From NCBI GenBank assembly GCA_963755715.1, contig CAVWLW010000063.1, forward strand, positions 1-64,000: DNA of 64,000 nucleotides, in the 5' to 3' direction. Both the position numbers and the translations under genes were made by a program. Shown in pieces: positions 38,639-62,154 of the stretch. How positions within the stretch are numbered: position 1 is the stretch's first letter; the number at the start of each line of letters is the position of its first letter. A model generated the notes under the pieces. It saw only the letters and a list, made by a program, of their open reading frames with translations, did not search any database and was not told the DNA's origin. The stretch comes from an uncultured delta proteobacterium. GTDB lineage: Bacteria > Desulfobacterota > Binatia > UBA9968.

Positions 38639-38744
38639 AAGGGACGATTGCGCGGCCAAAGCCAAAAACGTTATGCGAGTTTTCCTCGATACGCATGACA
38701 GCAATTGTCCCGCATTATACAGCGCGCGTACATTGCCAATACTT

Positions 38745-40923: not shown

Positions 40924-40985
40924 GCCGAGCTTTCTTTAAGTTTTGTATAGGGGAGCATGTTGAACCCCAAAAGAGGTTACTCGAT

Positions 40986-43190: not shown

Positions 43191-43236
43191 AAGTTTGGCG
43201 GGCGAATAGACAAATTCGAATAAAATAGGAGGAGGA

Positions 43237-44312: not shown

Positions 44313-44335
44313 AACTAAGATTACGGAGGACCAGG

Positions 44336-45456: not shown

Positions 45457-45481
45457 TTGCACTCGTGCGGAGGCGCGCTAG

Positions 45482-46457: not shown

Positions 46458-46502
46458 CGGGCCACTACCTACGGCTCGATTCTGCGAGCAGGAGCGCAAA
46501 CA

Positions 46503-47237
46503 ATGACAAGAATCGTCACGCGCGGATTAAAAGAAGAGAAGGACGGCATTCAAGGTTTCATCGCCTACCCGGAGCGCGCCGAGAAAGGCCCCGGTCTTTT
46601 GCTCATTCATCAACATTCGGGCCTGACGGGGTATTTGAAAACCGCTGCTTATAACTTCGCCCAGCTCGGTTATACGACGGTGGTTCCCAATCTCTATCAC
46701 ATGCTCGGCTATCCGGCCGAGACGCATATCGACAAGGGCACGGAGATTCAAAACAAAACGCCGGATCCGGATTTCGTTCGCGTGATCGATCGCGGCTGGC
46801 GCTATTGCCTGTCGCGGAATGACGTCGATGGCTCGCGCGTCGGCGTGGTTGGTTATTGCATGGGTGGGCGGCTGGGAATTCACTTCGTTGCCGCCACGCC
46901 CGCGGCGCGCGCATTTGTCGCGTACTATCCCTCGGTGCGCGACGAACAACCGACGAAGATCCGCCCGCGCCATCCGTGCGACGCGGCGCGGGAAATCAAA
47001 TGCCCTTCCATGATCCTTTACGGCGGCCACGATCAGCACAGCACGTTTCCGGTGCAGCAGCGGGTGATGGAAAGCTTTCACTCGAATGGCCAGTCATTGG
47101 AGTGGCACTATTTTCATTTCGGTTATCATGGTTTCGCTTCCACCGAATCGGACGGCTACCAACCCTATCTCGCCGATCTCGTCTGGCCGTTGGTGACGGA
47201 GTTTTTGGGGCGCGAGTTGATTGGGCCGGCACTTTGA
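46503..47237 (+). CDS. Dienelactone hydrolase family protein
   Basis: Nucleophile GYCMGG; YGG.D; HGF. Confidence 0.9.
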   Translation: MTRIVTRGLKEEKDGIQGFIAYPERAEKGPGLLLIHQHSGLTGYLKTAAYNFAQLGYTTVVPNLYHMLGYPAETHIDKGTEIQNKTPDPDFVRVIDRGWRYCLSRNDVDGSRVGVVGYCMGGRLGIHFVAATPAARAFVAYYPSVRDEQPTKIRPRHPCDAAREIKCPSMILYGGHDQHSTFPVQQRVMESFHSNGQSLEWHYFHFGYHGFASTESDGYQPYLADLVWPLVTEFLGRELIGPAL

Positions 47238-47374
47238 ACTTCGGAGTTTTTTTCTTTGGCGAAATCTGAAGCGCCGTTGCCAAATGCTTGAGCATACCGT
47301 GACTCACTCATAGGCACTCGATCGCGTTGAGATTCGGAAACACACCTGAAGTCACGCTTTTTTTGCAAAAAACG

Positions 47375-47390
47375 GTGGCATGCGAGTTGC
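47375..47390 (+). promoter_or_regulatory. Sigma-54 (-24/-12) promoter
   Basis: TGGCAT-GCGAG-TTGCT matches TGGCAC-N5-TTGCW with exact spacing; preceded by TTTTTTGCAAAAAA tract. Confidence 0.7.
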
Positions 47391-47481
47391 TCGATAAACA
47401 ATCACCGTTTGTCGCCGCACGCCGGAGCCACCTTCGCTGCTGCGTTCAAAAATCAATTCAGCCCATTGGGAGTGTCACGAA

Positions 47482-48450
47482 ATGAAACAGTTCGTACGAT
47501 CTTTGATCGTCTTTCTGCCGTTGATCTGCTTTACATCGGTCGGAGCAGCCGCCGAATTAAGAAAAGTCGTCTTCGGCTATTCAACCATCGGCGCCATGGC
47601 GGCGGGCGCCTGGATGGCCAAAGAGATCGGCGCTTATGAAAAATACGGCATTGATACCGAGCTGATTTATATTTCCTCCGGACCGACCGTAGTACAAGCG
47701 CTGCTCGGCGGCGACGTGACCGGTGGAATTGCCGCGACCAATGCCGTGATTGCCGCGGTGTTGCGCGGCGCGCCGTTGGTTTCTGTCATCAGCACAGCCA
47801 ACCGTCCCTATCACCGCTTCTGGGTGCGGCCGGAAATAGCCCGTATTGAAGATCTCAAGGGGAAAACCGTTGGCGTCACGCGCTTTGGTTCGGTGACCGA
47901 TAACCTGACTCGAATGGTGCTCAAAAAATATGGTTTGGAAAGCACGGTCAATGTGCGCCAGATGGGCGGGTCGGCGGAGGTCGGCGCGGCCTTTCAAAAC
48001 AAACAGATCGCCGGCGCGGTCACTTCGAGTCTGCGCGTCGATGCCACCGTGCAGCCCAGGCTGCTGATGAAACTGGAAGATCTGGGATTTCAATATTCAA
48101 TGGATGTGATCGCCTATTCGCGCGACGATATGAAGCGCGCGCCGCAGGTGGTCGAAGGCATGGTGCGCGCCTACACCGAAGGCGTGGCGGCGATTCATTC
48201 TCAAAAGGAAAAGGCTTATAAGGCGATCGCGAAATACGCGCGCCTTCGCGATCAAAAGAAGATCGATGAGATTTACCAAGATTCCATTCTCTATCTGGAG
48301 AAAACTCCACGGGTAGAGCCGGAGGCCATCAATTCGATTCTGGACTTCATGGGGAAAAAAGGCGTGCCAGTGGAAACCTTTGCCGACAATACGCTTGTCG
48401 ACAAAATGGTGCACGAGGGGTTCATCGATAAGCTCTATAAGAGGCCGTAG
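47482..48450 (+). CDS. NitT/TauT substrate-binding protein
   Basis: Signal peptide; WMAKEIGA.EK.G; GFIDKLY. Confidence 0.88.
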   Translation: MKQFVRSLIVFLPLICFTSVGAAAELRKVVFGYSTIGAMAAGAWMAKEIGAYEKYGIDTELIYISSGPTVVQALLGGDVTGGIAATNAVIAAVLRGAPLVSVISTANRPYHRFWVRPEIARIEDLKGKTVGVTRFGSVTDNLTRMVLKKYGLESTVNVRQMGGSAEVGAAFQNKQIAGAVTSSLRVDATVQPRLLMKLEDLGFQYSMDVIAYSRDDMKRAPQVVEGMVRAYTEGVAAIHSQKEKAYKAIAKYARLRDQKKIDEIYQDSILYLEKTPRVEPEAINSILDFMGKKGVPVETFADNTLVDKMVHEGFIDKLYKRP

Positions 48451-48459
48451 GGAGAGACG

Positions 48460-49533
48460 ATGATTCGGTTACATGGTCGGAAGGCTTGTTTCTGCATCCT
48501 TGCCGTTATTTTTTATCTTGTTGTTCCTCTGACTGCCGCCGCCGCAGTCGAAGATATACTTGCCGAGCTCAATGCAAAATCACCGGAAGAGCGGCAGAAA
48601 GTAATTGTCGAGAACGCAAAAAAAGAAGGCGAGGTAACCCTCTACACGGCGGTCAACATGCGCGACGCCCAAGAGCTGATCGCCGGTTTCAACAAGAGTT
48701 ATCCCGGGATACGAGTAGCAGTTTCAAGCCTGGGCGGACCGGGCGTGCTCAACAAAGTCCTGACGGAGAACCGCGCCAACGCCTATCTCGCTGATGTCGT
48801 GGCGCTCAACGGGATCAGCTCGGTGGAACTGATCGATAAAAAGATTGCGGCTCGATACAAAAGCCCCATGGTCGGTTTTCTGCGCAAGGGTTTCGTCGAT
48901 GCGGAGGGCTACTGGCCCGGCCTCTACGCCATCGGCTACACGATTATTTACAATAACAAACGCGTCTCGCAAAAAGAGGCGCCTAAACGGTACGAAGACT
49001 TGCTCCAACCGCGCTGGAAAAATAATTTGGTCATGGACGCAGAGGACCACGATCTGCTCGCCGGCCTTATCGATCTTTGGGGCGAAGCCAAAGCGACTGG
49101 GTTTTTAAAGCAAATCGCGCAAGACCAAAAGGTCACTTTCTCGCGCCAGTCGCACACATTTATGACCCAGTTGGTGGCCACCGGCGAGCACGACGTGATC
49201 GTCGACGGCTACGTTCATAATGCCGTGGCGTTGAAGGGAAAAAGTGCGCCCATCGATTACGTCATGACCAACCCAACCATCATCCGTCCGCCGACGACCA
49301 TCGCCATCATGGCGCGGGCGCCCCATCCCTACGCCGCCGCTTTGCTCTTGGATTATCATTTGTCCAAACCGGTGAGTGAAATCATGGTGAACAGTCAGGG
49401 CCGCTGGGCGCCGCGCAAAGATGTGCCGTGGGCCGTAGAGCCTCCAGGCGAGTTGCATTCGATCAATATGCTCGAATGGGGGCGAAAATACCGTCAGTTG
49501 GTGGCGCTGTTCAATAAGATGACGAGCCAGTGA
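48460..49533 (+). CDS. AfuA/FbpA-like solute-binding protein
   Basis: AKKEGEV, YEDLLQPRWK, APHPYAA. Confidence 0.88.
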   Translation: MIRLHGRKACFCILAVIFYLVVPLTAAAAVEDILAELNAKSPEERQKVIVENAKKEGEVTLYTAVNMRDAQELIAGFNKSYPGIRVAVSSLGGPGVLNKVLTENRANAYLADVVALNGISSVELIDKKIAARYKSPMVGFLRKGFVDAEGYWPGLYAIGYTIIYNNKRVSQKEAPKRYEDLLQPRWKNNLVMDAEDHDLLAGLIDLWGEAKATGFLKQIAQDQKVTFSRQSHTFMTQLVATGEHDVIVDGYVHNAVALKGKSAPIDYVMTNPTIIRPPTTIAIMARAPHPYAAALLLDYHLSKPVSEIMVNSQGRWAPRKDVPWAVEPPGELHSINMLEWGRKYRQLVALFNKMTSQ

Positions 49534-49688
49534 TGATGCGGATATTCAAAACCTGCGGCGAGCTATAACCCATTCTCGCGAGTTGACATCGTTGGGCTCG
49601 CGCTTTTTTCCGCCGGTTGGCAGGAGACGGCAAATTCGATATATCAACGGCAGGGCGAGCGAATATTTTTGTTTCAGGAGACGCGGCG

Positions 49689-50403
49689 ATGCAAATTGCG
49701 GAATGGAGAAAGACGATCGGTGAGATGGTGCGCGAGCATATGCGCTCGCCGGAGCTGGAGCATTATTTTTCGGTCAAGATGAACAAACCGCGGGCGCAGC
49801 TGATGATCACGCAGCTGGGACTTTACATTCGCCACCGGCGGGATTGTTGGGCGCTGGTGTCGGCCAATTGCCCGGTAATGGCGATCAAGCAAGCGATTTT
49901 GCAACACGAGTACGGCGAAGTGATCAAAGATCAGTTTTCCGATTACGGTCATTTGCACTTGATTATTCGCCAGGCAGCGAAAACTGGGCTTGACCCCGCA
50001 AGAAGTGATCGGCACCAAACCGATCGTCAGCACGACGGCGACGCTTTATGCTTGGGCCTGGCTCACGCACGCCAAGAGCTGGATCGAAGGGTTGTCCGCT
50101 CTGACGGTTACGGAGTGGACCAACGACGACCGGCTACTGAACGATATCGGCGGCGGCCATTCGAGCCGCATGGGCAAACGCTGGACAGAAGACATGGGAA
50201 TTGCCTGGCGCGACATGCCGAATTTCGTCGCGCATTCCCAGGCAGACGAAGAACACAGCGATATGTTTCTGCCATTTTTGGAGGAGTACGCGACGGGTGA
50301 AAAAGAAAAGATGGCGTTGGATGCCGTAAAGGAGTCCCTCGATCTTTTCGCGCTTTACCGTGAAGGTGTGGCGCGCGCAATGGAGAAAATTCCGTTGAAC
50401 TGA
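49689..50403 (+). CDS. Heme-oxygenase-like diiron (CADD/PqqC/TenA-fold) enzyme, paralog 1 (frameshift ~49985)
   Basis: RHRRDCW; HEYGE...GH; TEW; HSQADEEH (H-x3-D-x2-H). Confidence 0.78.
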
Positions 50404-50412
50404 ACCCACAGT

Positions 50413-50496
50413 TGTCATTCCGAGGAGCGCAGCGACGAGGAATCTCGTCCGATGTCAAGAATTCGGTCGAGATCCTTCACTTCGTTCAGGATGACA
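50413..50496. repeat. CGTC-class palindromic repeat pair
   Basis: TGTCATTCCGAGGAGCGCAGCGACGAGGAATCT ... AGATCCTTCACTTCGTTCAGGATGACA. Confidence 0.8.
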
Positions 50497-50575
50497 GCGC
50501 GGAAGAAGTCACGGTAAAAAAATGAGTAGTTGATCGGTCGTATTTTGTGATGACGTAAAAAATTAGGAGGCTAAC

Positions 50576-50914
50576 ATGGAAAAACCAAGAATCAGGCATA
50601 TCGCAATCAACGTCGAAGATCTCGACAAGACCGCAGAGTACTACAAAAAAGTTTTCGGCATGGAAGAAAAACATCGGCGGCCTGGGGGAACTATTTATCT
50701 ATCCGACGGCCATCTCGATCTCGCGCTCATCCATACCGAGAAATATCCGTGGGGAATCCACCACTTTGGTTTCAAGGTCGATAGCGTCAAAGAAATCGAG
50801 AAAATTGCCGACACGAAAGCCGAGGACAACACCTACGGAGCCATTGCGGAAAGTTGGATCAAAGACGCCGAAGGCAACCGCGTCGACGTGTCCGAGCACG
50901 GCTGGCCGATCTAG
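50576..50914 (+). CDS. VOC family protein
   Basis: IRHIAI.V.D......YY..VFG; GIHHFGF.V; DAEGN.VD. Confidence 0.88.
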   Translation: MEKPRIRHIAINVEDLDKTAEYYKKVFGMEEKHRRPGGTIYLSDGHLDLALIHTEKYPWGIHHFGFKVDSVKEIEKIADTKAEDNTYGAIAESWIKDAEGNRVDVSEHGWPI

Positions 50915-51043
50915 CAGCCCTGCTGAAAAAGACTCATATGCTTCGTTGCGCTCGATCGCCTCGCGTCAACGTACTGCCGATGTACGCCTCCGCTCGTCGA
51001 TTTTTCGCGCGCCTCGCCTCTGAGATCTTTTTGAGCAGCCTGC
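50914..51043. mobile_element. MITE with IS-like terminal inverted repeats
   Basis: GCAGCCCTGCTGAAAAAG ... CTTTTTGAGCAGCCTGC; begins at the TAG stop of the VOC gene; ends resemble 32024-32161. Confidence 0.7.
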
Positions 51044-52014
51044 AATCCAAGTTTTTCCGCACCCTAAGAGTCCGATTCCACGCCGCGTTAATTTTGTTCT
51101 TTCTGGTGCTGGTGCATGGGCTTGCAACGGCGCAGAGCCCGCCGAAGGTTAGCGTCGCTTATGCTGCCATTAGCCCCATATTCGCGGGGGTATGGATGGC
51201 GCAGGAGATCGGCGCCTTTGAAAAGCATGGGCTAAAATCGGAATTGGTCTACATAAGCTCCGGAAGCATCACCGTCCAGGCCATGGTCGGTGGCAATTTG
51301 GACATGAGCGTTGCCGCAAGCAACGCTGTGGTGAGCTCGATCTTGCGCGGAGCGCCGCTGGTGGCCGTCGGCAGTATCACCAACCGGCCCGCCATGAGTT
51401 TGTTCGTCCAATCGGAAATCTCCAGACCCGATCAGCTTCAAGGCAAAGCGCTCGCGATCACCCGGCACGGGTCATCGACACATTTTTTAACTCTCTTCGT
51501 CCTCGAAAAGCTCGGTCTGAAAGACAAGGTTAAGATTCAGCCCATGGGCGGCACGAGGGAAGTCGACGCGGCCGTCCGTACCGGCATGGTTGCGGGAGCC
51601 GTGCGCAGCATGAAGCCGGGTCCAAAGACGCACATGCTAGTCGACTTGCCGGATCTAGGAATTCCTTTCTCGATGGATCTCATCGCGGTGAAGCGGGATT
51701 TCTACAAGAACTCGCCGCGCACGGTAGAGGCGATGTTGAAAGCTTACATCGAAGGCGTCGCCGCGCTGAAAACCAGAAAAGAGCTAGCCTACAAAGTTCT
51801 GGGAAAATACCTGCTCGGCGCGAGTGATTCGCTGGACGAGGCCTACGAATACGCCATCAAATATCTCGATCGTCAAGCGAGGATAGATCCGGCGGTGATT
51901 CAAACGGTGCTCAATTGGGAGAACAAAGGCGACACGCCGGTCAATGAGTTTTTCGACAATTCGGCTGTCGATCGGATTATCAAAGAGGGATTCGTCGAGC
52001 GGTTATACAAGTAG
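50938..52014 (+). CDS. NitT/TauT substrate-binding protein (start uncertain; in-frame ATGs lie inside the MITE)
   Basis: YAAISP...WMAQEIGAFEK.G; paralog of 53687-54652. Confidence 0.82.
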   Translation: MLRCARSPRVNVLPMYASARRFFARLASEIFLSSLQSKFFRTLRVRFHAALILFFLVLVHGLATAQSPPKVSVAYAAISPIFAGVWMAQEIGAFEKHGLKSELVYISSGSITVQAMVGGNLDMSVAASNAVVSSILRGAPLVAVGSITNRPAMSLFVQSEISRPDQLQGKALAITRHGSSTHFLTLFVLEKLGLKDKVKIQPMGGTREVDAAVRTGMVAGAVRSMKPGPKTHMLVDLPDLGIPFSMDLIAVKRDFYKNSPRTVEAMLKAYIEGVAALKTRKELAYKVLGKYLLGASDSLDEAYEYAIKYLDRQARIDPAVIQTVLNWENKGDTPVNEFFDNSAVDRIIKEGFVERLYK

Positions 52015-52029
52015 CCGCTGGAGATCGTT

Positions 52030-52737
52030 ATGAAGCGAGCAGAGTGGAGAAAAGAGCTGGGAGAGCTGGTGCGTGACGCGATGCGCTCACCTGAGCTGGA
52101 TCACTATTTCAAAGTGAAAATCACCAAGCCGGGCGCGCAGATCTTGATCACGCAGCTCGGTCTTTTTATTCATCACCGCCGTGACTGTTGGTCGCATGTG
52201 TCGGGCAACTGCCCGCATATGTCGGTGAAACAAAAAATTCTCCAGCATGAATACGGCGAAGTCATCAAGGACAATTACACCGAGCACGGCCACATGGAGC
52301 TGATCGTTCGGCAAGGCAAGGCGCTCGACCTGACTCCTGAGCAGGTGATGAATGTCGAGCCGCTGCCATCGACCATGGCCACGCTTTATGCCTGGGCTTG
52401 GATGACCCGCGAGAAGAGTTGGCTCGAAGGGCTCGCTTCTCTGACAATCACCGAGTGGGCCAACGATGACCGGTTGCTGCACGATGTCGGCGGCGGGCTG
52501 TCGAGCCGCATGGCCAAACGCTGGATGGACGATCTCGGCTTTGGCTGGGAGCAGATGCCGAACTTCAAAGTGCACAGCGAGGCAGACGAAGAGCACAGCG
52601 ACATGTTTCTGGAGGATCTGGAAAAATTCGCCACGGGTGAGAAGGAGACGCAAGTCTACCAAGCAGCGAAGGAATCCATGGACCTGCTGAAAATATTTCG
52701 CGGCGGGATAGCGAAGGAAATGGAGAGATTCGGTTAG
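52030..52737 (+). CDS. Heme-oxygenase-like diiron enzyme, paralog 2
   Basis: HHRRDCW; HEYGE...GH; TEWANDDRLL; HSEADEEH. Confidence 0.8.
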   Translation: MKRAEWRKELGELVRDAMRSPELDHYFKVKITKPGAQILITQLGLFIHHRRDCWSHVSGNCPHMSVKQKILQHEYGEVIKDNYTEHGHMELIVRQGKALDLTPEQVMNVEPLPSTMATLYAWAWMTREKSWLEGLASLTITEWANDDRLLHDVGGGLSSRMAKRWMDDLGFGWEQMPNFKVHSEADEEHSDMFLEDLEKFATGEKETQVYQAAKESMDLLKIFRGGIAKEMERFG

Positions 52738-52782
52738 CGCGGTGATAAGGTGCCGCGTTTTCATCGGAGAAACCCCGCCAAA

Positions 52783-52862
52783 TTTGAAAAAGGGGGTAAG
52801 GGGGATTTGGCGCTGACGATGAAAAAGAAAATCCCCCTTCATCCCCCTTTTTCAAAGGGGGA
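52783..52862. repeat. G/C-tract palindromic repeat
   Basis: TTTGAAAAAGGGGGTAAGGGGGATTT ... AAATCCCCCTTCATCCCCCTTTTTCAAAGGGGG. Confidence 0.8.
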
Positions 52863-52950
52863 GTTTAGGAGCTCGAAGCTTTAGTTTTTGAGCCAGTAAC
52901 AATGTCAAGCTGCTTCACCGGTGCATGAACATTAACTAGGAGTATTTAGG

Positions 52951-53657
52951 ATGAATGCGAACGAATGGTCCGCCGCTTTCGGCGAGTTGGCACGGCAAAC
53001 AATGTCTTCGGCGGAACTGGAACGGTATTTTTCAATTCCAATTACTAAAGCCCGCGCGCAAATTATTCTGCAGCAACTTTCGCTTTACGTGCGCCACCGG
53101 CGCGATTGTTGGGCTTTTGTCTCGGGCAACTCGCCGGTCCTATCAGTGAAGCAAAAGATACTCGGCCACGAGTATGAAGAGGTGATTCGTGATCAACACT
53201 CGGAGCATGGCCACTTGGATTTGATTTTTCGCCAAGGGAAATGCATCGGGCTCGGTGCCGACGACATCCTGAATACCAAGCCGATTCCCAGCACCACCGC
53301 GACGCTCTACTCTTGGGGCTGGATGTGCAAGAAAAAGAATTGGCTCGAAGGGCTGGCGGCGATGACGATGACCGAATGGAATCAGGACGATCGACTGCTG
53401 GGAGATTTGGGCGGTGGCCACGCCTTTCGCATGGGGCAGCGGTGGGTCGAGCACTGGGCATCACGTGGGACGATCTGCCGAATTGGAAAGCGCACCGCGA
53501 GGCCGACAAGGGCCATGTCGATATGTTTCTTCCCGTCTGGGAGGAATTCGGCAAAGGCGAAAACGAAAAAATGATCTTGCAGGCGGCGAAAGAGTCGGAA
53601 GAATTATACCGCGTCTATCAAGCAGGTCTTGCCGATGCCATGGAACGACTGGTTTGA
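52951..53657 (+). CDS. Heme-oxygenase-like diiron enzyme, paralog 3 (frameshift ~53455)
   Basis: RHRRDCW; HEYEE...GH; TEWNQDDRLL; HREADKGH in the shifted frame. Confidence 0.78.
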
Positions 53658-53686
53658 TCGATTGAAGACTTCCTGAGGTTTTACGG

Positions 53687-54652
53687 ATGCGGATTTTTCG
53701 ACTCGCAATACTGCCTTTGATTCTTCTTGCTACAACTCAAACCGTTCGCTCCGCTGAAATTGCCAAAGAAAAAATCACGTTCGCTTACGCCTCCATCAGT
53801 CCGAGTATGTCGGCCGTCTGGATGGCGAAAGAGATTGGCGCGTTCGAAAGAAACGGGTTGAATGCCGAGCTGGTTTACATCAGCTCGGGCGCCACGACGA
53901 TCCAGGCGTTGGTGGGCGGCAGCGTTCAAGCCGCGCTGGGCGCGAGCAACGCGGTGGTCGCTGCCACCCTCAAGGGCGCGCCGATCATCGCCGTCGGGGG
54001 CAACAGCAGCCGCCCCGGCATGCAGCTTTGGGTGCAGCCGGAGATTCAGCGCGCGGAACAATTACAGGGAAAGACGCTTGCCATCACCCGTTTTGGCTCG
54101 ACGAGCGACTTCGTGACTCGGCTGATTCTGCGAAAACTGAATCTCGAAGGAAAGACGGAACTGCGCCAGTTCGGCGGCGTGGTGGAAGCCGATATGGGGT
54201 TTCGTGCGCGTCAGGCAGAAGGGCGAGTCTCATCTCAGGCGCCGGGGCCGAAGGCAAGAATGCTGGTGGACGCCGCGGAACTCGGCATTCCTTTTTCAAT
54301 GAATCTGTTGGCCGTGAGCAACGATTATTTACAAAAATCGCCGAAGTCGGTGGACGCGATCGTCAGAGCTTATATCGAAGGAATCGCAGCGCTGAAGACG
54401 CGAAAAGCGCAAGCGCTCAAGTTGTTCGAGAAATACATGGGGCAGCGCGGCGGCAGCGCCGAGATGCACCATGATTTTGTCATGAGATATTTGGATTCTG
54501 TTCCGCGCATCGATCCGGCGGCGGTGGATACGGTGCTCGAAATGGTCGGCGCCAAAGGCGCGCCCAAAGACAGGCTTTACGATAACACCATCATCGATCG
54601 GCTGATTCACGAAGGTTTCACCGACAAGCTTTACAAAGGAGCAAAGCCATGA
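53687..54652 (+). CDS. NitT/TauT substrate-binding protein
   Basis: Signal peptide; WMAKEIGAFE; ATGA overlap with next gene. Confidence 0.88.
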   Translation: MRIFRLAILPLILLATTQTVRSAEIAKEKITFAYASISPSMSAVWMAKEIGAFERNGLNAELVYISSGATTIQALVGGSVQAALGASNAVVAATLKGAPIIAVGGNSSRPGMQLWVQPEIQRAEQLQGKTLAITRFGSTSDFVTRLILRKLNLEGKTELRQFGGVVEADMGFRARQAEGRVSSQAPGPKARMLVDAAELGIPFSMNLLAVSNDYLQKSPKSVDAIVRAYIEGIAALKTRKAQALKLFEKYMGQRGGSAEMHHDFVMRYLDSVPRIDPAAVDTVLEMVGAKGAPKDRLYDNTIIDRLIHEGFTDKLYKGAKP

Positions 54653-55359
54653 CGGAAAAACAGTGGCACGAGTGTCTAGGGGAATTGGTGCGCGACTATA
54701 TTCGTTCGCCCGAGCTGGAATTTTATTTTTCGATCAAGATGAACAAGCCCCGGGCCGCCGTCATGGTGAAACAGCAGAGCTTGTTTGTGCGCCATCGGCG
54801 CGACTGCTGGGCACATGTGTCGGCCAATTGCCCGGTGCTGGGCGTCAAGCAGCGCATCTTGGAGCATGAATACGAGGAAATTATCCGCGACGATTTTTCC
54901 GACTACGGCCATCTTCATCTCATTATTCGGCAAGGAAAATCAGTCGGTCTCGAGCCCGAGGAAATTATCCGTGCGGAACCTTTGCCGGAAACTCTTGCGA
55001 CGCTTTATGCCTGGTCGTGGATGACCAGCGAGATGCCTTGGACCGAGTCGCTTGCCGGCATGACGATCACCGAATGGTGCAACGATGACCGGCTGCTCGG
55101 CGATTTAGGCGGCGGGCAGTCGACGCGCATGGCAAAAAAATGGATGGAGGACATGGGCTTTACCTGGAAAGAGATTCCCAACCTGCAGGCGCACAGCCAG
55201 GCGGACGAGAAGCACAGCGATATGTTTTTGCCGTTTCTCGCCGAATACGCCACCGGCAATAAAGAAGCGCCGGCGATTCAAGCCGCGAAAGACTCTTTGG
55301 CGTTTAATGCGATGTATCGCAAGGGTATCGCGCTGGCGCAGGAAAAGATTCCGCTGTGA
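54649..55359 (+). CDS. Heme-oxygenase-like diiron enzyme, paralog 4
   Basis: RHRRDCW; HEYEE...GH; TEWCNDDRLL; HSQADEKH. Confidence 0.8.
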   Translation: MTEKQWHECLGELVRDYIRSPELEFYFSIKMNKPRAAVMVKQQSLFVRHRRDCWAHVSANCPVLGVKQRILEHEYEEIIRDDFSDYGHLHLIIRQGKSVGLEPEEIIRAEPLPETLATLYAWSWMTSEMPWTESLAGMTITEWCNDDRLLGDLGGGQSTRMAKKWMEDMGFTWKEIPNLQAHSQADEKHSDMFLPFLAEYATGNKEAPAIQAAKDSLAFNAMYRKGIALAQEKIPL

Positions 55360-56393
55360 TATCTTTTCAAAAGTTTCATTTTTCAAGAATAATTGCCGCG
55401 CTCTTTGTGTCGCTCGCACTGCTCGGAGCGTTGCCTTGCAGCGCTTTCGCCGCGGACGCGAAAATCATCGAAGCAGCCAAGAAGGAAGGCGAGCTCGCTT
55501 GGTGGAGCACCATCGCCCAGGATCAGTCGCAGAAAATCGTCGACGAGTTCATGAAACTCTATCCGTTCATCAAAGCGAGCTATTGGCGCAGCGGCAGCGT
55601 AGGATTGCACAACAAGATCTTGATCGAAGCTCGGGCAGGTCGTTCGAGTTGGGATGTGGTATCGCAGACCACGCCGGAATTTATTTTCGATCTTAAACAG
55701 AAAAAATTGATCGCGCCTTACAATTCTCCGGAGCGCGGCCAGTTCAGCGCGGATCTAAAAGATCGAGAGGGCTATTGGACGGGAACCTATGCGTTACCAA
55801 CGGGCCTGGGCTTCAATACTCAACAGGTGAAGAAGGAAGACGCGCCCAAGAGTTACAAAGACCTGCTCGACGGCAAGTGGAAGGGCGGCAAGATTTCTAT
55901 CGATGATGAAAACTACGAGCTTTTGGTCGGCCTCGAGCAAGCGTGGGGGAAAAAGCCCGCCGTAGAATATTTGAAAGCTTTAGCGGCGCAAGCGCCGACG
56001 ATAGGGCGAGGAGCGACTCAACGAACCCAGCTCTTGGCGGTCGGTGAATTTCCGCTGGCGATTTCCTATACGCACACGGTCGAGTGGTCTAAGTCTCAAG
56101 GCACCTCGGTCGATTGGGTCAACTTGGAGCCGGTGGTGATCAAGTTTGACGGCATCATGCTCGGCGCCAAGGCGGCGCATCCGAACGCCGCGAAACTATT
56201 TATCGACTTTGTCCTGTCGCAAGCCGGGCAGGAACTATTACAGAGTTTTAGCCGGGTCACGCTCCGCAACGGCGTGGAGCCCAATCCGCCGCGATTGATA
56301 AAAGGGTTCAAACGCGTTGTCCTTCATCCGGAAAAAGCCCAGGATGCCCAAGAGAGCCTGAAGCTTTATCGGGAAATATTTGGTCTGCCATGA
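55356..56393 (+). CDS. AfuA/FbpA-like solute-binding protein
   Basis: AKKEGEL; HPNAAKLFIDFVLS; GTGA overlap with the upstream gene. Confidence 0.88.
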   Translation: MISFQKFHFSRIIAALFVSLALLGALPCSAFAADAKIIEAAKKEGELAWWSTIAQDQSQKIVDEFMKLYPFIKASYWRSGSVGLHNKILIEARAGRSSWDVVSQTTPEFIFDLKQKKLIAPYNSPERGQFSADLKDREGYWTGTYALPTGLGFNTQQVKKEDAPKSYKDLLDGKWKGGKISIDDENYELLVGLEQAWGKKPAVEYLKALAAQAPTIGRGATQRTQLLAVGEFPLAISYTHTVEWSKSQGTSVDWVNLEPVVIKFDGIMLGAKAAHPNAAKLFIDFVLSQAGQELLQSFSRVTLRNGVEPNPPRLIKGFKRVVLHPEKAQDAQESLKLYREIFGLP

Positions 56394-57355
56394 GCGCGCT
56401 GCGCACTTATCTAATTGCGCTGGTCATCAGCCTATGGGTTTCCGGGGCCGGCTTGGTCCGCGCCGAAAAAATCATCTTTGCCTATCCAAGTCCTTCGACG
56501 AGTTTTTTGCCTTTGGTCGTGGCGCAAAAGAAGGGTTTCTTCGATCCGGAAAACCTGCAACCGGAATTGGTGCAGATTCGCCCCGCGGTCGCCATTCCCG
56601 GCCTAACCCTTGGCAGCGTCGATTACACCACGGTGCTCGGCAGCACGATCGCGGCGCGCATGCGTGGCGTGCCCCTCGTCATCACCGGCGTGTTCGCCGA
56701 CAAGCCGATGGACTTTTTGGTCGGAGCGAAAGGAATCGCGTCACCAAAAGATCTCAAGGGCAAAATTATCGGGATCAGCGCTTTGGGCACCGCCACACAC
56801 TTCTTGACGGTAAGAGTTCTTAAAGCGGTCGGCCTCGACCCGGAAAAAGATGTGACCCTGCGCGCGGTGGGCGACGAGGGACTACGCTTGCAAGCGCTGA
56901 GCACGGGGTTGGTGCAGGCTTCACTATTAGGCTCGCAAGGCGTGATCGAAGGTGAAAAAGCCGGCCTTAAAGTGATCGTCGCAGCAGCGGACGTGATTGA
57001 GAGTCTTCCTTTCGCCGGCGTCACAACCACTCTGGCCAAACTCAAAGAAAATCCCCAGCAGATCAAAAGAGTCTTGCGCGCGGGACTGCGCGGCCTTCGG
57101 TATGTTCAAGATAATAAAGCCGGAACGGTCGACGTGATTCAGAGCTGGTATCGAGTCGAACGCGAAATCGCCGCGTCGACCTACGATCTGGCCCGCAAGT
57201 CTTTTAGTGCGAACGGAGAGGTAAACGAGAAAGGGATCTTGCTCAGCATGGAATTTGCGCGCACGAGCGGGAAGTTTGAGAAAGAAATTTCTCCCTTGGA
57301 AATCATTGATTTCAACCTGTTGCGCGAGGTGAAAAAGGAGCTCGGGTGGCGCTGA
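56390..57355 (+). CDS. NitT/TauT substrate-binding protein
   Basis: Close paralog of 40986-41971; ATGA overlap. Confidence 0.88.
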   Translation: MSALRTYLIALVISLWVSGAGLVRAEKIIFAYPSPSTSFLPLVVAQKKGFFDPENLQPELVQIRPAVAIPGLTLGSVDYTTVLGSTIAARMRGVPLVITGVFADKPMDFLVGAKGIASPKDLKGKIIGISALGTATHFLTVRVLKAVGLDPEKDVTLRAVGDEGLRLQALSTGLVQASLLGSQGVIEGEKAGLKVIVAAADVIESLPFAGVTTTLAKLKENPQQIKRVLRAGLRGLRYVQDNKAGTVDVIQSWYRVEREIAASTYDLARKSFSANGEVNEKGILLSMEFARTSGKFEKEISPLEIIDFNLLREVKKELGWR

Positions 57356-57439
57356 CCGTGCTTTTGCAGAAGCGCGAAGATGAAGGTATGGTGGACACAC
57401 TGATAATTTTTTTGAAAGAGCAACAAAGGGGAGGTCACT

Positions 57440-58138
57440 ATGAGTCTCTGGCCAAAAGTGCGCGAAGAACTGAACACGATTGTGAACCGTCATTTTGAAA
57501 CGCCGGAGTACCGGCAGTTGTTTGCGGTGAAACTGACTCCCGCGCGGCAAGCGATCTGGGATGTGCATTATCCGCACTACATCAAGAGCCGGCGCGATTG
57601 CTGGGGCGCGGCAGCGGTGAAGGCGCCGCTCGATGTGAAGCGCGCGATCTGGGAGCACGAGAAAGACGAGTTGATTTATGACGCACGGATGGGATCGGCG
57701 CACTTGACCGACCAGCAGATGGCCGAAGCCGCCGCGGAAGCGAATTTACTTCCCGGCGTGCGCGCGGCGCTCATGGCTTGGATGTATTTGTCGACGACGA
57801 GCCCGTGGATCGAAGCCTTGACGGTCAATCACATTACCGAGCGCAAGAACAACCCGGCGATCGTCAAAGGCGGCGGTTTCACGGCGCGCTTTGCGCACAA
57901 GCGAGTCGCCGATCAGGGCGGCACGATCGAGGGTCTCGACATCAACACCAAAGTTCACATGGTGGCGGATGAAGATCATTCCGACATGTTCGAGCCGATC
58001 TACGATCGCCACATTACCGATGAGCGGACAGCGCAGGCAGTGATTCGCTCGGCGCTCGACAGTCTCGCCGTCGATCGCGCTTATCGCAGTGCGTTAGCCA
58101 CCGCGATGGCTCAGATCGAGGAATCGGCGGCGGCGTGA
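57440..58138 (+). CDS. Heme-oxygenase-like diiron enzyme, divergent paralog 5
   Basis: SRRDCW; HEKDE...AH; ITE; HMVADEDH. Confidence 0.72.
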   Translation: MSLWPKVREELNTIVNRHFETPEYRQLFAVKLTPARQAIWDVHYPHYIKSRRDCWGAAAVKAPLDVKRAIWEHEKDELIYDARMGSAHLTDQQMAEAAAEANLLPGVRAALMAWMYLSTTSPWIEALTVNHITERKNNPAIVKGGGFTARFAHKRVADQGGTIEGLDINTKVHMVADEDHSDMFEPIYDRHITDERTAQAVIRSALDSLAVDRAYRSALATAMAQIEESAAA

Positions 58139-58231
58139 AGGATCAGTTTCGAGTTTCAAGAACCACAAGAAACTGAATGGAGGCCGGGCGACGGTTGCCT
58201 CTGATGTCATCCACGATGGGAACGATCGAGA

Positions 58232-58265
58232 AGGGGGTGCCGCTTGCTTGGGCACCCCCTCTTTT
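58232..58265 (+). terminator. Putative intrinsic terminator
   Basis: AGGGGGTGCC-N9-GGCACCCCCT hairpin followed by CTTTT. Confidence 0.65.
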
Positions 58266-58356
58266 GTCTTCAAGATGAAATCGCCCGGGGCGTAACGGCA
58301 ACCAGGCGGCGCGCGCTGGTCATCTTGTGCGGCGTTAACAATTTTCAGAAATCGCT

Positions 58357-59499
58357 ATGGAAATAAAATTCGGTCTGATCAGTTCCGATTCGCACGGCCA
58401 GCTTGGCAAGGACGCCTATACAAGCCGCATGTCCGAGCAAAAGTGGGGAGAAAAAATCCCGCACTTGGTCGAGGTTCGGGAAGACAAGTTTCCTTTTCCC
58501 GTCGAGCGCTGGATGGTCAACGGCGAGATTCAAGGCGGCAACGTTTGTAATTGTCCGACGGCGATGAAACAGCGGAGCTACTATCCACAGCGCTGGGAGG
58601 AAGTTCCTCTCGAAGTCTACGATCCCGCGCGTCGCCTCGAAGCGCTGGACAGAGACCGGGTCGATGGCGAAGTTTTGTTTCCCAACGGACCGGGTGGCAC
58701 TTTCTTCTACGGCGACCCGGAGTTCGAGCTTGACTGCGTCAGGGCCTATAACGACGCGCTCGCCGAATTTCGCCGGGTGAGCGACCGCTTCATTCCGCTT
58801 GCCGCGGTGCCTTACATGAGTTCCATCGAAACGATCGTCGGCGAGGTGGAGCGCGCCGTTCAAACCGGCCACATGGGCATCAACATGTTGGCGGATCCGA
58901 GCGTCGCGGTGCAAGGTCTCAAAAATCTCAGCGATCCTTTTTGGCATCCGCTGTGGAATATTTGCCAGGAGCTTGGCGTCGGCGTCCATTTACATGCGTC
59001 TGCCGGGCTCGCTGGAAAGTTGTCATTGCCCCAATGGAAAGGCTACACGCGGCGACAGTCGCATTGCGTCTCGACGCTGCGCAATTTCTGCACGGCTACG
59101 CAGTTCGTGCCGTATTTGATTTTTTCCGGCATGCTCGACAAATTTCCTCGGCTCAACTGGGTCTTTGCTGAAACGGGGCTAGGCTGGGTGAGCTCGGTTC
59201 TGGAGGCTTGCGATTGCGAATGGGAAAAGCGCCACCTTTGGACCGAAGGGATTCTTACTCGGCCCAGCGAGCTGTTTCGGCGCCAGATCTACGTCGATTT
59301 CTGGTTCGAAACGGTCGGCATCCAACTGCGTGATTGCATCGGCGTCGACAATATTCTTTGGGAATCCGACTTTCCGCACATCACTTCCACATATCCGAAC
59401 TCCTGGAACGCCGTCGAGCATTCGCTGGCAGGTGTTTCAGCCGCCGATCGCGAAAAAGTGTTGTTTCGCAACGCCGCGCGGTTGTATCGATTGACGTAG
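58357..59499 (+). CDS. Amidohydrolase_2 family protein
   Basis: ISSDSH; D.DRVDGEVLFP; AYND; AETG.GW; WESDFPH; NAARLY. Confidence 0.9.
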   Translation: MEIKFGLISSDSHGQLGKDAYTSRMSEQKWGEKIPHLVEVREDKFPFPVERWMVNGEIQGGNVCNCPTAMKQRSYYPQRWEEVPLEVYDPARRLEALDRDRVDGEVLFPNGPGGTFFYGDPEFELDCVRAYNDALAEFRRVSDRFIPLAAVPYMSSIETIVGEVERAVQTGHMGINMLADPSVAVQGLKNLSDPFWHPLWNICQELGVGVHLHASAGLAGKLSLPQWKGYTRRQSHCVSTLRNFCTATQFVPYLIFSGMLDKFPRLNWVFAETGLGWVSSVLEACDCEWEKRHLWTEGILTRPSELFRRQIYVDFWFETVGIQLRDCIGVDNILWESDFPHITSTYPNSWNAVEHSLAGVSAADREKVLFRNAARLYRLT

Positions 59500-59526
59500 C
59501 TAGTCTACCAACGGCAAAAGTTAAAC

Positions 59527-60658
59527 ATGGAATTTAAACACGGTCTGATCAGCGCGGACGATCATGTGCAGGAACATCCTGAGGTTTGGACTGCGCGCCT
59601 GTCGCGGGAAAAATGGCGCGACAGGATTCCCCACGTGGCGCGCATGGCCGATGGCAGCGACGCTTGGATCGTCGACGGTCAACGCCTGTCCTTGCCTGGC
59701 GTCGCGATAGCCGGCGCGGCTATGGCAGATCGCGGCCAGGAGGTGAGGTGCTGGGACGATGTGCCGCCGATGGTATTTAGCGCGCGCGAACGATTGAAAG
59801 CGATGGACGTGGACGGCGTCGACTGCGCGATACTGTATCCCAGCGTAAGCGGTTTGGCGGCGGAAACTTTCGGCAAGCTCGACGATTCGGATTTGGAGCT
59901 CGCTTGCGTGCAGGCTTACAACGATTGGTTGATCGACGAGTGGGCCGACGTCAGCCCGCGGTTCGTGCCGCAATGCATCGTGCCGATCTGGCCGATGGAG
60001 CGGACGGTGGCGGAGATCGAGCGCGCCGTTGCCAAGGGTCATAAGGGTGTCATCTATCCGGCGTCGCCGATGGAGCTTCGCGCCGTGCCGCATATCAACG
60101 AGCCGGCTTACGATCCGCTCTGGGCCACTTGCCAAGAGCTCGGCGTGCCGCTTTGCTTCCACGCGGGCGGGTCGCCCAAGATTCAGATGCGGCCGGGCGA
60201 TGCATTCTCACCGGCGGTGGCCGCGGCATTCAGCGGTGTGGTGCGCTCGGTGAGCTCGATTGCGGTGGTGGCGAATTTTCTGCTTTCGCGCATCCTCGAC
60301 CGCTTTCCCAAGCTGAAAATCGTGTTCGCCGAAAGTTCGCTCGGCTGGGGCGCCTACGAAATCGAGTATGCGGACTATCAGTCGGAGGCCGACGGTTTGC
60401 CGTCGGAAGGCTATACTTCGAAGCCGTCGGAACTGTTCCAGCGCCAATGTTATTTTACTTGCTGGTACGATCACATGAGTCTTCGGGTGCGGCGCTATCT
60501 CGGCAGCGCAAATATTTTGTGGTCGAGCCATTTTCCGCTGGCGACCTCGAGTTGGCCCAATACCAAGCAGCGCGACTGAGCGGAGTTTTGCCGAGGTGCC
60601 GGATCAGGAGAAGCGGCAAATTCAATGGGAAAACGCCGCGAAGCTGTATTCGCTTTGA
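59527..60658 (+). CDS. Amidohydrolase_2 family protein (frameshift near C-terminus)
   Basis: ISADDH; AYNDW; AES..GW; WSSHFP; corrected end NAAKLYSL*. Confidence 0.87.
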
Positions 60659-60690
60659 GCAAATCGAATCAACGAGCAGGAGGTAAAAAC

Positions 60691-61044
60691 ATGAGACCTA
60701 AAGTTCGACATGTGGCCGTGATGACGAAAAATCGCGAGAAGATGGTGGAGTTCTATCAGAAAATATTCGGCCTGGAGCCGAAACGCGGATTCGGCGGGGC
60801 GATTTATATGTCCGACGGCGACGTCAACATCGCGCTCATCGAAGCCAAACGCGACGACCAAAAAGAGGGCATCAACCATTTCGGCTTCGAGGTCGACGAT
60901 CTCGACGACATCAAGCGACGATTGAAGGAAGCAGGATTTAACGCCGAGATCGATTCGAAGTCGGATAAAGACTCGGACCATCGAATCCAGGATCCCGATG
61001 GCCATTGGGTCGATATGGCGGTCGATCGCCGCTGGCCGAAATAA
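60691..61044 (+). CDS. VOC family protein
   Basis: VRHVAV; GINHFGFEV; DPDG; C-terminal WP shared with 50576-50914. Confidence 0.88.
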   Translation: MRPKVRHVAVMTKNREKMVEFYQKIFGLEPKRGFGGAIYMSDGDVNIALIEAKRDDQKEGINHFGFEVDDLDDIKRRLKEAGFNAEIDSKSDKDSDHRIQDPDGHWVDMAVDRRWPK

Positions 61045-61087
61045 ATTTCAATTAAAAGTAAGTGCAAGCGATTACGAGGAAGGTTCG

Positions 61088-62107: not shown

Positions 62108-62154
62108 GCGGCGCCAGTCATCGAAGGCGCGCCGCGCATTCACGGCAGGAATCT

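Follow-up and report, generated by a model that had tools for sequence, protein, structure and literature searches.

What do five related genes of the heme-oxygenase-like (HO-like) fold do among genes for periplasmic solute-binding proteins (SBPs) in an uncultured soil bacterium of the Binatia? The question is raised by positions 49689 to 58138 of a 64,000-nucleotide stretch of contig CAVWLW010000063.1 (assembly GCA_963755715.1), the whole of which is termed the window here; the individually listed genes from 44336 to 63730 are on the + strand. A preliminary description of this DNA had proposed five paralogous enzymes, HDO1 to HDO5, which together with SBPs form an uptake-plus-oxidation system. 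The answer favored here, and considered moderately probable from sequence and structural models, is that HDO1 to HDO5 are cytoplasmic enzymes of about 235 residues that form an uncharacterised clade of heme-oxygenase-like di-metal oxidases (HDOs) and would oxidise imported molecules captured by the SBPs.

The five paralogs are real. A tblastn search of the whole window with HDO2, HDO4 and HDO5 as queries returns only five matches (49689-50397, 52030-52734, 52951-53651, 54649-55356 and 57461-58135). Five homologous genes thus stand where five open reading frames (ORFs) of about 230-240 amino acids had been described, but only three are uninterrupted, with lengths of 232-236 amino acids: HDO2 (52030-52737; 235), HDO4 (54649-55359; 236), which is the most conserved paralog, and HDO5 (57440-58138; 232), a divergent paralog that is 31-35% identical to HDO2 and HDO4. 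HDO1 (49689-50403) and HDO3 (52951-53657) are each recovered in two frames by tblastn and translation. The motifs first noted for the paralogs (RRDCW, HE-x2-E-x10-H, TE and H-x3-D-x2-H, with DDRLL-x-D-x-GGG in HDO1 to HDO4) are borne out by translations and alignments, although for HDO1 and HDO3 those farther downstream can be read only after the change of frame. The ORF list and Pfam likewise place a binding-protein gene directly 5' of four of the five HDO genes, and the ATGA, GTGA and ATGA overlaps are found at 54649, 55356 and 56390, both as first described.

The frame of HDO1 changes near 49980 by an extra base in an A run within GCGAAAACTGG, and that of HDO3 changes at 53454, where one base is missing within GAGCACTGGGC. 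The nearest genomes share merely 76-86% DNA identity with the window; hence, metagenome contigs were used to address the shifts. The base at 49980 is absent from contigs in three soil metagenomes, each of a separate study (depth: X1, 52.9/56.7; X4, 3.47/5.47; X10, 6.57/6.57), and an extra T follows 53454 in the same three metagenomes (X1, 42.7/42.7; X4, 3.46/3.46; X10, 11.5/11.5). Both variants bring the genes back into frame, in contigs that are 90-99% alike and may stem from related (sister) strains. Orthologs of HDO1 and HDO3 are uninterrupted in other metagenome-assembled genomes (MAGs; e.g., loci L003 and L033), with 26 intact orthologs of HDO3 at other loci. Because the metagenome contigs restore the frames and orthologs elsewhere are intact, the shifts are most likely assembly errors and at most strain variants or a strain-specific pseudogene. 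DNA near-identical to the window is present in soil metagenomes from at least nine studies. Other genes of the window also look split or truncated, including an NMT1 binding protein (38673-39732; ORFs 38673/39145), a binding protein at 45482-46396, a gamma-glutamyltransferase (61954-63730), an ATP-binding cassette (ABC) ATPase (5747-6217) and a thiamin pyrophosphate (TPP) enzyme (27850-29100), which fits an indel-prone assembly.

The fold of these proteins is HO-like. Modelled by AlphaFold2 from 36 diverse homologs, HDO4 is all helical (predicted local distance difference test, pLDDT, 97.0; predicted template-modelling score, pTM, 0.92). Foldseek searches with this model return CtCADD first (E 1.5e-7, TM 0.75-0.83), followed by SSO2700, PqqC, 3dde, BesC, TenA, UndA, HamA and FlcD. 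The VIA-align Z values are 24.9 for SSO2700, 24.1 for CADD (root-mean-square deviation 2.2 Å, 210 residues), 22.7 for PqqC, 21.7 for HrmI, 21.2 for BesC, 20.6 for TenA and 19.9 for UndA. The superposition on CADD and UndA suggested in the preliminary description therefore yields an HO-like fold; since the Z values are close together, the fold indicates the heme-oxygenase-like group without a choice among its branches. HDO5 is modelled with lower confidence (pLDDT 83.8), has PqqC and CADD as its top Foldseek matches and shares the fold and ligand set of the other paralogs.

Family models narrow the assignment. HDO2 (44.3 bits) and HDO4 (50.4 bits) score above the cut-off (28.9) of Pfam PF14518, Haem_oxygenas_2, in the search that the preliminary description had called for; the C-terminal fragment of HDO1 falls below it (21.9), the HDO3 fragments have no PF14518 match and HDO5 matches no Pfam family, PF14518 included. 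The second Pfam family of that search, TENA_THI-4 (PF03070, cut-off 22), is matched by HDO2 (36.4), an HDO3 fragment (25.1) and HDO4 (23.8), with only about residues 40-149 covered. No PqqC or TenA model of NCBIfam is matched at E<=0.001, so these models give no sign of the clustering with metal-free PqqC/TenA that would have counted against the initial proposal. The CADD model TIGR04305 (fol_rel_CADD, cut-off 200 bits) gives 38 bits for a C-terminal stretch of HDO2 and no match for HDO4 or HDO5, and is passed by no gene of the whole genome, the best scoring 90 bits. In a search of the family profile against all PDB sequences, the E values are 1.8e-31 for SSO2700, 1.9e-24 for 9pj4 ('4-aminobenzoate synthase'), 6e-16 for CtCADD, about 1e-12 for PqqC, 1.5e-9 for BesC, 1.7e-5 for FlcD and 0.17 for TenA (3oql). 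The ESM Atlas returns only unnamed clusters of 'iron-containing redox enzyme / TENA' type. The closest characterised relatives of HDO1 to HDO5 are the CADD-type p-aminobenzoate synthases, yet membership in CADD fails by the family models, as does membership in PqqC, and membership in TenA, for which only the partial TENA_THI-4 match speaks, is improbable.

A complete metal site is predicted by alignment. In the profile alignment, E77, H88, E142, H182, D186 and H189 (residues of the predicted site carry HDO4 numbers) fall on CADD positions 81, 88, 142, 174, 178 and 181, which we take to be the CADD metal ligands. The CADD numbering is derived from the Tyr27 peptide in the portion of PMC9522330 that was available. 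None of the six ligand columns varies among 134 full-length homologs (134/134), a set drawn from 46 related loci and the window after tblastn matches with less than 90% query coverage, including HDO1 and HDO3 of the window, were dropped. PqqC is without counterparts of E77, H88 and H182 in the same alignment. The predicted dimetal ligand positions are therefore conserved, and the three-His/three-carboxylate set of CADD type that the preliminary description read from the motifs is recovered by profile alignment and by the 134 homologs alike. That HDO1 to HDO5 are proteins of the HDO superfamily with a complete set of predicted ligands is well supported by sequence and modelling.

What distinguishes the clade is the RRDCW motif at residues 50-54 of HDO4. 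R50, R51 and W54 are invariant across the 134 homologs, as are G154-G156, while C53 is kept in 130/134 and position 52 is Asp or Glu in 131/134. The aligned segment is FPKY in CADD and FPRW in more distant homologs. In the HDO4 model, RRDCW lies on a long helix (residues 33-60) ahead of the first ligand helix, and the order of helices suggests that this is auxiliary helix 2. According to the available text of PMC7848743, six iron ligands are predicted in HDOs, the N-oxygenases having a seventh, a carboxylate contributed by an auxiliary helix (3-His/4-carboxylate), and auxiliary helix 2 is associated with the binding of substrate and, for SznF, with Glu189 as the extra ligand. The spacing of D52 to E77 is 25 residues and that of Glu189 to Glu215 of SznF is 26 (PMC7848743, same portion). 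Thus, D52, and perhaps C53, may be a candidate extra ligand or substrate contact; the role is offered as a hypothesis only, because the SznF residue resides on a beta-turn insertion that is without counterpart in the HDO4 model, where the helix is continuous. A cysteine next to the extra-carboxylate position is not described for the assigned HDOs in the literature examined.

The assigned HDOs include the N-oxygenases SznF, RohS and HrmI, the C-C cleaving, olefin-forming UndA and BesC, as well as FlcD and PolF. With these the array enzymes share the HO-like core and, as predicted, the His/carboxylate di-metal site of HDOs (PMC7848743, in the part available), structural Z values of 18-22 and an auxiliary helix that precedes the first ligand helix and is the proposed substrate determinant. 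By contrast, sequence identity is 9-15%, and the assigned enzymes named in the literature examined are olefin-forming or belong to natural-product clusters, whereas the array lies among SBPs and catabolic-type genes. The best relative by both profile and structure is SSO2700 (PDB 4LQX), which has about 100 extra N-terminal residues; SSO2700 and Sden_3740 (PDB 3DDE) are structural-genomics proteins of the HO fold without assigned function, and neither has RRDCW in the aligned segment. Some 9,600 sequences of the HDO superfamily, which keeps expanding, have been counted, a handful with assigned reactions, according to the accessible part of PMC7848743; in that source and others, these reactions serve natural-product or cofactor synthesis or olefin formation. 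The array was not found described in the literature searched, though the clade may already be a numbered cluster of the sequence network in PMC7848743.

The clade is narrowly distributed. In a collection of 5.8 billion proteins, 621 homologs of HDO4 are found at E<=1e-5, the best 120 of which are 75-94% identical, with many soil metagenome proteins among them. A representative library of 1.84 billion contains 261 clusters at E<=1e-3 and 26 at 1e-30. Contigs of one genome per species provide 46 loci, nearly all titled as MAGs of Binatia or 'delta proteobacterium'; single loci are labelled Chloroflexota, Thermodesulfobacteriota, Verrucomicrobiia, Eisenbacteria and Proteobacteria, and a few are labelled Syntrophobacter/Syntrophobacteraceae. 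Matches at E<=1e-20 are found in 19 of 151 genomes of the class, all in three families of the order of the window (f1, 8/9; f2, 2/2; f3, 8/8), and such matches are absent from the genomes of the 16 other class families searched. Among the genomes searched, the clade is confined to one Binatia order and thus narrow, and it fits the uncharacterised subfamily with a conserved RRDCW cysteine that had been proposed at the outset. By sequence, the array enzymes are placed as a lineage-restricted HDO clade within a known enzyme superfamily.

The array itself recurs, and the synteny across the 46 loci is not chance. The first half has the order NMT_a, HDO1, NMT_b, HDO2, HDO3, NMT_c and HDO4. In the window, NMT_a (47482-48450; Pfam NMT1 E 1.3e-22) is an NMT1/THI5-like periplasmic binding protein with a signal peptide, NMT_b (51130-52014; E 1.7e-19) is an NMT1-like binding protein whose listed ORF starts at TTG 50854, and NMT_c (53687-54652) is an NMT1-like periplasmic binding protein, by Pfam, with a stop codon that overlaps the HDO4 start (ATGA). 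After HDO4 the order continues with an optional Fe-type SBP, an optional NMT_d, HDO5, two Amidohydro_2 proteins, a VOC protein, an Fe-type SBP, a gamma-glutamyltransferase and a UbiD-like decarboxylase. Synteny was counted over 39 loci with an HDO4 ortholog that includes the N-terminus, 37 of them with at least 1 kb upstream and 27 with at least 2.3 kb downstream. An NMT1-type gene is directly upstream of HDO4 in 34/37 loci; the 34 junctions comprise 28 4-base overlaps, three 1-base overlaps, one 14-base overlap, one 1-base gap and one 294-base gap. Thus, the binding-protein/HDO adjacency, which the preliminary description asked to be sought in other Binatia genomes, does recur there. HDO5 is within 5 kb downstream of HDO4 in 27/27 loci and directly adjacent in 17. 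The interleaving of binding proteins stands for NMT_c and HDO4 but not for the genes that separate HDO4 from HDO5 in the window, FeS_b (55356-56393; Fe3+-type, Pfam SBP_bac_6) and NMT_d (56390-57355; Pfam NMT1, of a different clade); these are variable inserts that are missing from most related loci, with FeS_b the sole intervening gene in 7/27 loci and accompanied by NMT-type genes in two more. The five-gene array is the largest form; at locus L004, NMT_c and HDO4 are followed only by an Fe-type binding protein and HDO5, while in a sister family an HDO5-like gene is accompanied by two more HDOs and a gamma-glutamyltransferase. Near the sister-family locus (L053, G016:C1:2541000-2560000), an exporter of the TauE/SafE family, a binding protein of TctC type and an SBP_bac_5 protein are encoded.

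The paralogs are distinct and old. Average-linkage clustering yields orthogroups of HDO4 (36 sequences, mean identity 0.81), HDO1/2 (32, 0.71), HDO5 (31, 0.79) and HDO3 (26, 0.80), with identities of 0.30-0.58 between groups. A maximum-likelihood (ML) tree of 56 rows (the rows of the window, eight other paralogs of this genome and, for each group, up to nine members drawn at random) supports clades of HDO1, HDO2, HDO3 and HDO4 with SH-aLRT values of 97-100 and of HDO5 with 99, and groups HDO5 with dispersed paralogs on contigs C52, C59, C65 and C51. Across all five groups, 27 columns are fixed and identical; another 17 are fixed within groups and differ between them, and positions 76, 87, 143 and 145 of these adjoin ligands. 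This is the pattern expected of old duplicates that are all still catalytic and have diverged in specificity, as judged by sequence, and it is also compatible with a mixed complex.

Such a complex, in which the paralogs would combine as subunits into a single hetero-oligomeric enzyme (e.g., HDO4 with HDO5 and HDO2 with HDO3), is the least improbable of the alternatives, though itself unlikely. The constant company of HDO5 and HDO4 in the 27 loci is as expected of partners, and HDO2 and HDO3 are neighbors with no binding protein between them. A natural tandem fusion, P0171 of the representative library (523 amino acids), carries two HDO domains, though of a distant FPHW branch, and the tandem amidohydrolase pair near the array recalls the two-subunit name of AibH1H2, which is a heterodimer. 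However, every orthogroup keeps the six ligand positions and none resembles a degenerate scaffolding subunit; the paralog set varies by genome, with only HDO4 and HDO5 at L004 and three HDOs in the sister family; and the two halves of P0171 are alike, so that this fusion speaks for dimerisation as such but not for mixed pairs. Another apparent fusion, P0272, was rejected as a frameshift artefact that joins NMT_c and HDO4. HDO-like genes are numerous in this genome, at odds with the early statement that they usually occur as single copies: 24-33 genes encode HO-fold 'iron-containing redox enzymes', including a tandem pair (C51:58154-59612), a divergent pair (C55:32003-34018) and C45:61006-61716.

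The binding proteins appear to share a history with the HDOs. Those at 45482, 47482, 50854 and 53687 are mutual nearest paralogs at 42-54% identity among 456 NMT1-like ORFs of the genome, 47482 being the nearest paralog of 45482 (54%) and NMT_b and NMT_c being 48-50% identical. The same clade includes C18_8408 and C26_97514, and C18_8408 adjoins an HDO of the RRDCW clade that is 49% identical to HDO4. That the binding proteins beside HDO1 to HDO4 are each other's closest paralogs suggests that SBP and HDO were duplicated together as modules. NMT_d is outside this HDO-linked clade, with its nearest paralog at 40737-41645 (78% identity), and orthologs of NMT_c share 67-98% protein identity across loci. 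Because HDO genes are inherited together with periplasmic binding-protein genes, the array enzymes probably oxidise small imported molecules, insofar as sequence can indicate.

The mechanism proposed on this basis would begin with capture of a small polar, probably acidic, organic molecule by a periplasmic binding protein, followed by import via an ABC permease encoded elsewhere. The HDO would load two Fe(II) or Fe/Mn, activate O2 and oxidise the molecule, either by N-oxygenation or by cleavage of a C-H or C-C bond. The acid group of the substrate may be held by R50 and R51, which are invariant, while D52 and C53 of the auxiliary helix may line the Fe1 side of the pocket. Group-specific residues beside the ligands could provide each paralog with its own substrate or step, and PtmU3/DitZ-like proteins, VOC proteins, the cytoplasmic gamma-glutamyltransferase and a UbiD-type decarboxylase may process the products.

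Several observations weigh against this scheme. Two-metal binding and O2 activation by HDO1 to HDO5, as well as their substrate, are inferred from sequence, and the geometry of the predicted site and the placement of D52 and C53 near the metals derive from alignment and helix order only. The cluster is without an ABC permease or ATPase, the nearest being at 4310-6217 (permeases 4310-5790). Array composition varies, FeS_b and NMT_d being facultative and HDO3 being without a binding protein of its own. Rfam scans of the window found no riboswitch, and no regulator that would point to a ligand was found. The neighborhood looks like a catabolic or salvage one and not a natural-product cluster, a likeness drawn from family names alone. 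The binding proteins at 47482, 53687 and 56390 score 51.5-85 bits against the SsuA-family model TIGR01728, which has a cut-off of 163.5. SBP genes are also abundant: 848 of 7161 ORFs of the genome (11.8%) have an NMT1-like neighbor, such that adjacency of SBP and HDO is weak evidence by itself. Of the uptake-plus-oxidation system in the preliminary description, the conserved SBP-HDO synteny is thus upheld, while the missing transporter components, the lack of an SBP for HDO3 and the share of SBPs among the ORFs speak against it; the model is plausible and partly supported, and a division of labor in which every SBP/HDO pair serves its own related import can only be inferred.

These same points nourish another alternative, that the SBP genes are bystanders to HDOs that act on an endogenous metabolite, the interleaving being a reflection of the extreme SBP density of the lineage. 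Among the 7161 crude ORFs, 456 match a hidden Markov model (HMM) of the NMT1-like proteins of the window and 168 match a Fe3+-type HMM, or about 9% of genes, in counts that are approximate as the greedy caller takes antisense shadow ORFs (e.g., 52087-52842 for HDO2 and L053:9760-11121). In a genome search with Pfam NMT1, the best 150 of 566 candidates were scored and all are over the cut-off, while ABC permease domains have 113 matches. The missing permease and the coming and going of FeS_b and NMT_d across genomes fit bystanders as well, and 13 of 19 other HDO-like genes of the genome are without a binding-protein neighbor. However, the 4-base NMT_c/HDO4 overlap is kept at 28/34 loci together with the high identity of NMT_c, and the flanking SBPs form one clade that also accompanies an HDO on contig C18. 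The other six of the 19 HDO-like genes touch an NMT1-type gene, compared to the 11.8% background (binomial p 0.019). The kept overlap, the shared SBP clade and this enrichment partly rescue the argument from adjacency, and the bystander explanation is considered improbable. Lone periplasmic binding proteins are extremely expanded in this genome, as exemplified in the window by 18565-19590, 40737-41645, 26316-27350 and 32225-33121, and no paper on binding-protein expansion in Binatia was found in the literature.

The binding proteins provide little guidance on ligands. All four NMT-type ORFs (47482, 50854, 53687 and 56390) pass PF09084 (cut-off 20.5) with 51-81 bits; scores are far below the equivalog cut-offs, and the family, as judged by sequence, names no ligand. 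The solved structures found for NMT_c are weak matches (3qsl, 9e-5; taurine-binding TauA, 3e-3) from which no ligand is deducible. FeS_b has as its best solved relative the iron-binding protein 7f6p (E 9.5e-25).

A more doubtful alternative is that one or more paralogs, HDO5 foremost, are self-sacrificing, single-turnover proteins that cut a cofactor precursor from a tyrosine of their own, as CADD makes p-aminobenzoate from its Tyr27 (PMC9522330, in the portion available). The resemblance to CADD (CT610; PDB 1RCW, 8VA9 and 8VAG) and 9PJ4 is real, as these p-aminobenzoate synthases are the closest characterised relatives and share the fold, the six aligned ligands, a similar size and a single domain. 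Residue 24 of HDO5, in the column of CADD Tyr27, is Tyr in 31/31 orthologs. By contrast, this column is Leu, Ile or Met in HDO1 to HDO4, the column of CADD Lys152 is Ala in these proteins, RRDCW replaces the FPKY segment, and identity to CADD is 13-14% with TIGR04305 scores far below the cut-off. No folate genes were seen in the neighborhood by Pfam annotation, the array context being one of binding proteins and oxygenases, and the paralogs are 30-58% identical in separate orthogroups, which is unlike dosage amplification of a suicide enzyme. HDO1 to HDO4 have an invariant Tyr three residues after the CADD-Tyr27 column.

A pairing of periplasmic SBP and HO-fold enzyme is also found in thiamin salvage by ThiXYZ-TenA, where ThiY presumably belongs to the NMT1/THI5 family. 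TenA, like PqqC, has the same fold as the array enzymes, TENA_THI-4 is above cut-off for HDO2, HDO4 and an HDO3 fragment, and the Joint Genome Institute (JGI) labels many homologs 'PqqC'. In the known salvage, ThiY binds formyl aminopyrimidine and the cytoplasmic TenA hydrolyses aminopyrimidine, so that an HO-fold enzyme acts on an imported compound (PMC3020362, as far as available). Nevertheless, that the array encodes metal-free enzymes of TenA/PqqC type with an NMT1-family SBP for a salvage of this kind, the conserved cysteine acting as nucleophile, is very improbable, as TENA_THI-4 is matched over part of the protein, no NCBIfam model of TenA or PqqC is matched, the TenA (0.17) and PqqC (about 1e-12) profile E values trail those of SSO2700, 9pj4 and CADD, the six predicted ligands that PqqC partly lacks are invariant, and the cluster has neither a TPP riboswitch (Rfam, window) nor transporter subunits, with the invariant ligands and missing riboswitch in particular disfavoring the ThiY-TenA chemistry.

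The favored reading, oxidation of imported molecules by HDO1 to HDO5, is set within a larger neighborhood of genes with metabolic family names. Upstream is a split TPP-dependent decarboxylase (44336-45456; Pfam TPP_enzyme_N and TPP_enzyme_C) with an alpha-like (44336-44833) and a beta-like (44827-45456) part. The enzyme resembles, by sequence, sulfopyruvate/phosphonopyruvate decarboxylases, is below the cut-offs of TIGR03845 (78.8 versus 147.95 bits) and TIGR03846 (97.9 versus 221.5), and is found upstream of the array in L021, L024 and L031. It is followed by an NMT1-like periplasmic binding protein (45482-46396) with a C-terminal part that is out of frame in the assembly (Pfam NMT1 covers residues 43-179 only, before an Arg-rich tail) and a dienelactone-hydrolase-family protein (46503-47237; Pfam DLH E 2.1e-32) with orthologs of 85-93% identity in L009, L011, L022, L025, L036, L039 and L040. 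FeS_a (48460-49533), a Fe3+/PhnS-type binding protein (Pfam SBP_bac_6/8), is directly upstream of HDO1 and 77% identical to 43383-44312. This pair (43383-44312/48460-49533, Fe-type) and the NMT1-type pair 45482-46396/47482-48450 (54%) are in the same order and mark a local segmental duplication. A small VOC/glyoxalase-fold protein (50576-50914; Pfam Glyoxalase E 2.8e-11) is encoded between HDO1 and NMT_b.

Downstream of HDO5 are two tandem Amidohydro_2 proteins (58357-60579; 58357-59499 and 59527-60579, by Pfam), a second VOC/glyoxalase-fold protein (60625-61044; Pfam Glyoxalase E 4.7e-15), the Fe3+-type binding protein FeS_c (60998-62107; Pfam SBP_bac_6 E 1.2e-22) and the gamma-glutamyltransferase (61954-63730). 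The first Amidohydro_2 protein is nearest to PtmU3 (3.8e-33) and DitZ (3.4e-29) among PDB sequences, with 8sm6 at 1.2e-13. Amidohydrolase-related dinuclear oxygenases such as PtmU3 and DitZ are defined by D-x-H and D-x-P-H-x-D/E motifs, according to the available part of PMC13154177. An N-terminal D-x-H is present in both tandem proteins, as in PtmU3, DitZ, SfbO and AibH1H2: the first has DSH with DFPHIT (10/10 orthologs), and the second has DDH with HFPLA[TS] (4/10, the pattern being unmatched in the other six). Despite the strong homology to PtmU3 and DitZ, assignment of the pair to this class by motif was rejected as neither DFPHIT nor HFPLAT/S conforms to the C-terminal D-x-P-H-x-D/E (PMC13154177, same portion). 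Such variant C-terminal motifs would escape the motif filter published there, as far as that portion describes it. At 10 loci, an ortholog of FeS_c (72-81% identity) comes after the amidohydrolase pair.

The gamma-glutamyltransferase is without a signal peptide and is split into two ORFs (61954-63156 and 63107-63730). Its intact orthologs in L009, L015, L022 and L025 match Pfam G_glu_transpept; that of L009 passes TIGR00066 (377.4 versus 357.85), and no signal peptide is found at its N-terminus. A UbiD-type decarboxylase is in the neighborhoods of other loci. Farther upstream, the window encodes three LigXa-like oxygenases of Rieske type, an extradiol dioxygenase of LigB type and a molybdenum hydroxylase (2163-3413, 9536-10462, 20963-22267, 13589-14503 and 36263-38638), and genes of oxidative catabolism abound in the region as a whole.

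A scan of 47000-62000 for promoters and terminators counted 9 versus 6.7 and 25 versus 20.8 in shuffled sequence, respectively, which is indistinguishable, and no operon boundaries can be drawn. Short contigs of one RNA library cover parts of HDO1 (50168-50339), the VOC gene, a repeat and HDO2; this is weak evidence, and transcription of the array is not thereby shown. A dispersed repeat at 50905-51070, about 125-145 bp with terminal inverted repeats (similar to miniature inverted-repeat transposable elements or repetitive extragenic palindromes), has 25 matches in the genome, including the query, at 73-100% identity and copies in relatives, and folds to a long hairpin (-47.7 kcal/mol, z -2.2). 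As the first approximately 90 codons of the NMT_b ORF cross this repeat, the true start is probably downstream of TTG 50854. A second short repeated hairpin (52783-52862) between HDO2 and HDO3 has copies in two related genomes. Rfam detects no family above threshold in the whole window, and a relaxed search of 43000-62000 yields only chance-level microRNA-like and viral matches, the weak microRNA-like ones being due to this second hairpin.

For the family, a bolder claim can be framed, to which only a small likelihood is attached: the RRDCW clade would be a functionally new HDO class, with a di-metal site plus an Asp/Cys pair on the substrate helix, and the PtmU3/DitZ-like pair would join it in a pathway, specific to Binatia, with as many as seven two-metal oxygenases, in which each SBP and HDO module cleaves or N-oxygenates one of a family of imported small acids. 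Substrate candidates under this claim are organosulfonates, phosphonates or gamma-glutamyl amines, for which weak hints derive from the SsuA/PhnS-like SBPs, the sulfopyruvate/phosphonopyruvate-decarboxylase-like enzyme, the cytoplasmic gamma-glutamyltransferase and the TauE gene near the sister-family locus. If true, HDO chemistry would here be met for the first time in nutrient catabolism instead of natural-product or cofactor synthesis. More immediately, the findings bear on annotation, as the two frameshifted 'pseudogenes' HDO1 and HDO3 are most likely intact genes and 'PqqC' and 'amidohydrolase', as assigned automatically to these proteins, are probably misnomers. The clade stands out as a very conserved one, of a single lineage of abundant uncultured soil bacteria, with stable orthogroups, a matching SBP clade and a catabolic-type context, and the paired binding proteins offer a handle on substrates via ligand screening. 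Such substrates would help explain the role of the hundreds of lone binding proteins of Binatia and, if they are common soil compounds, would reveal a new oxidative route in the turnover of soil carbon, nitrogen, sulfur or phosphorus.

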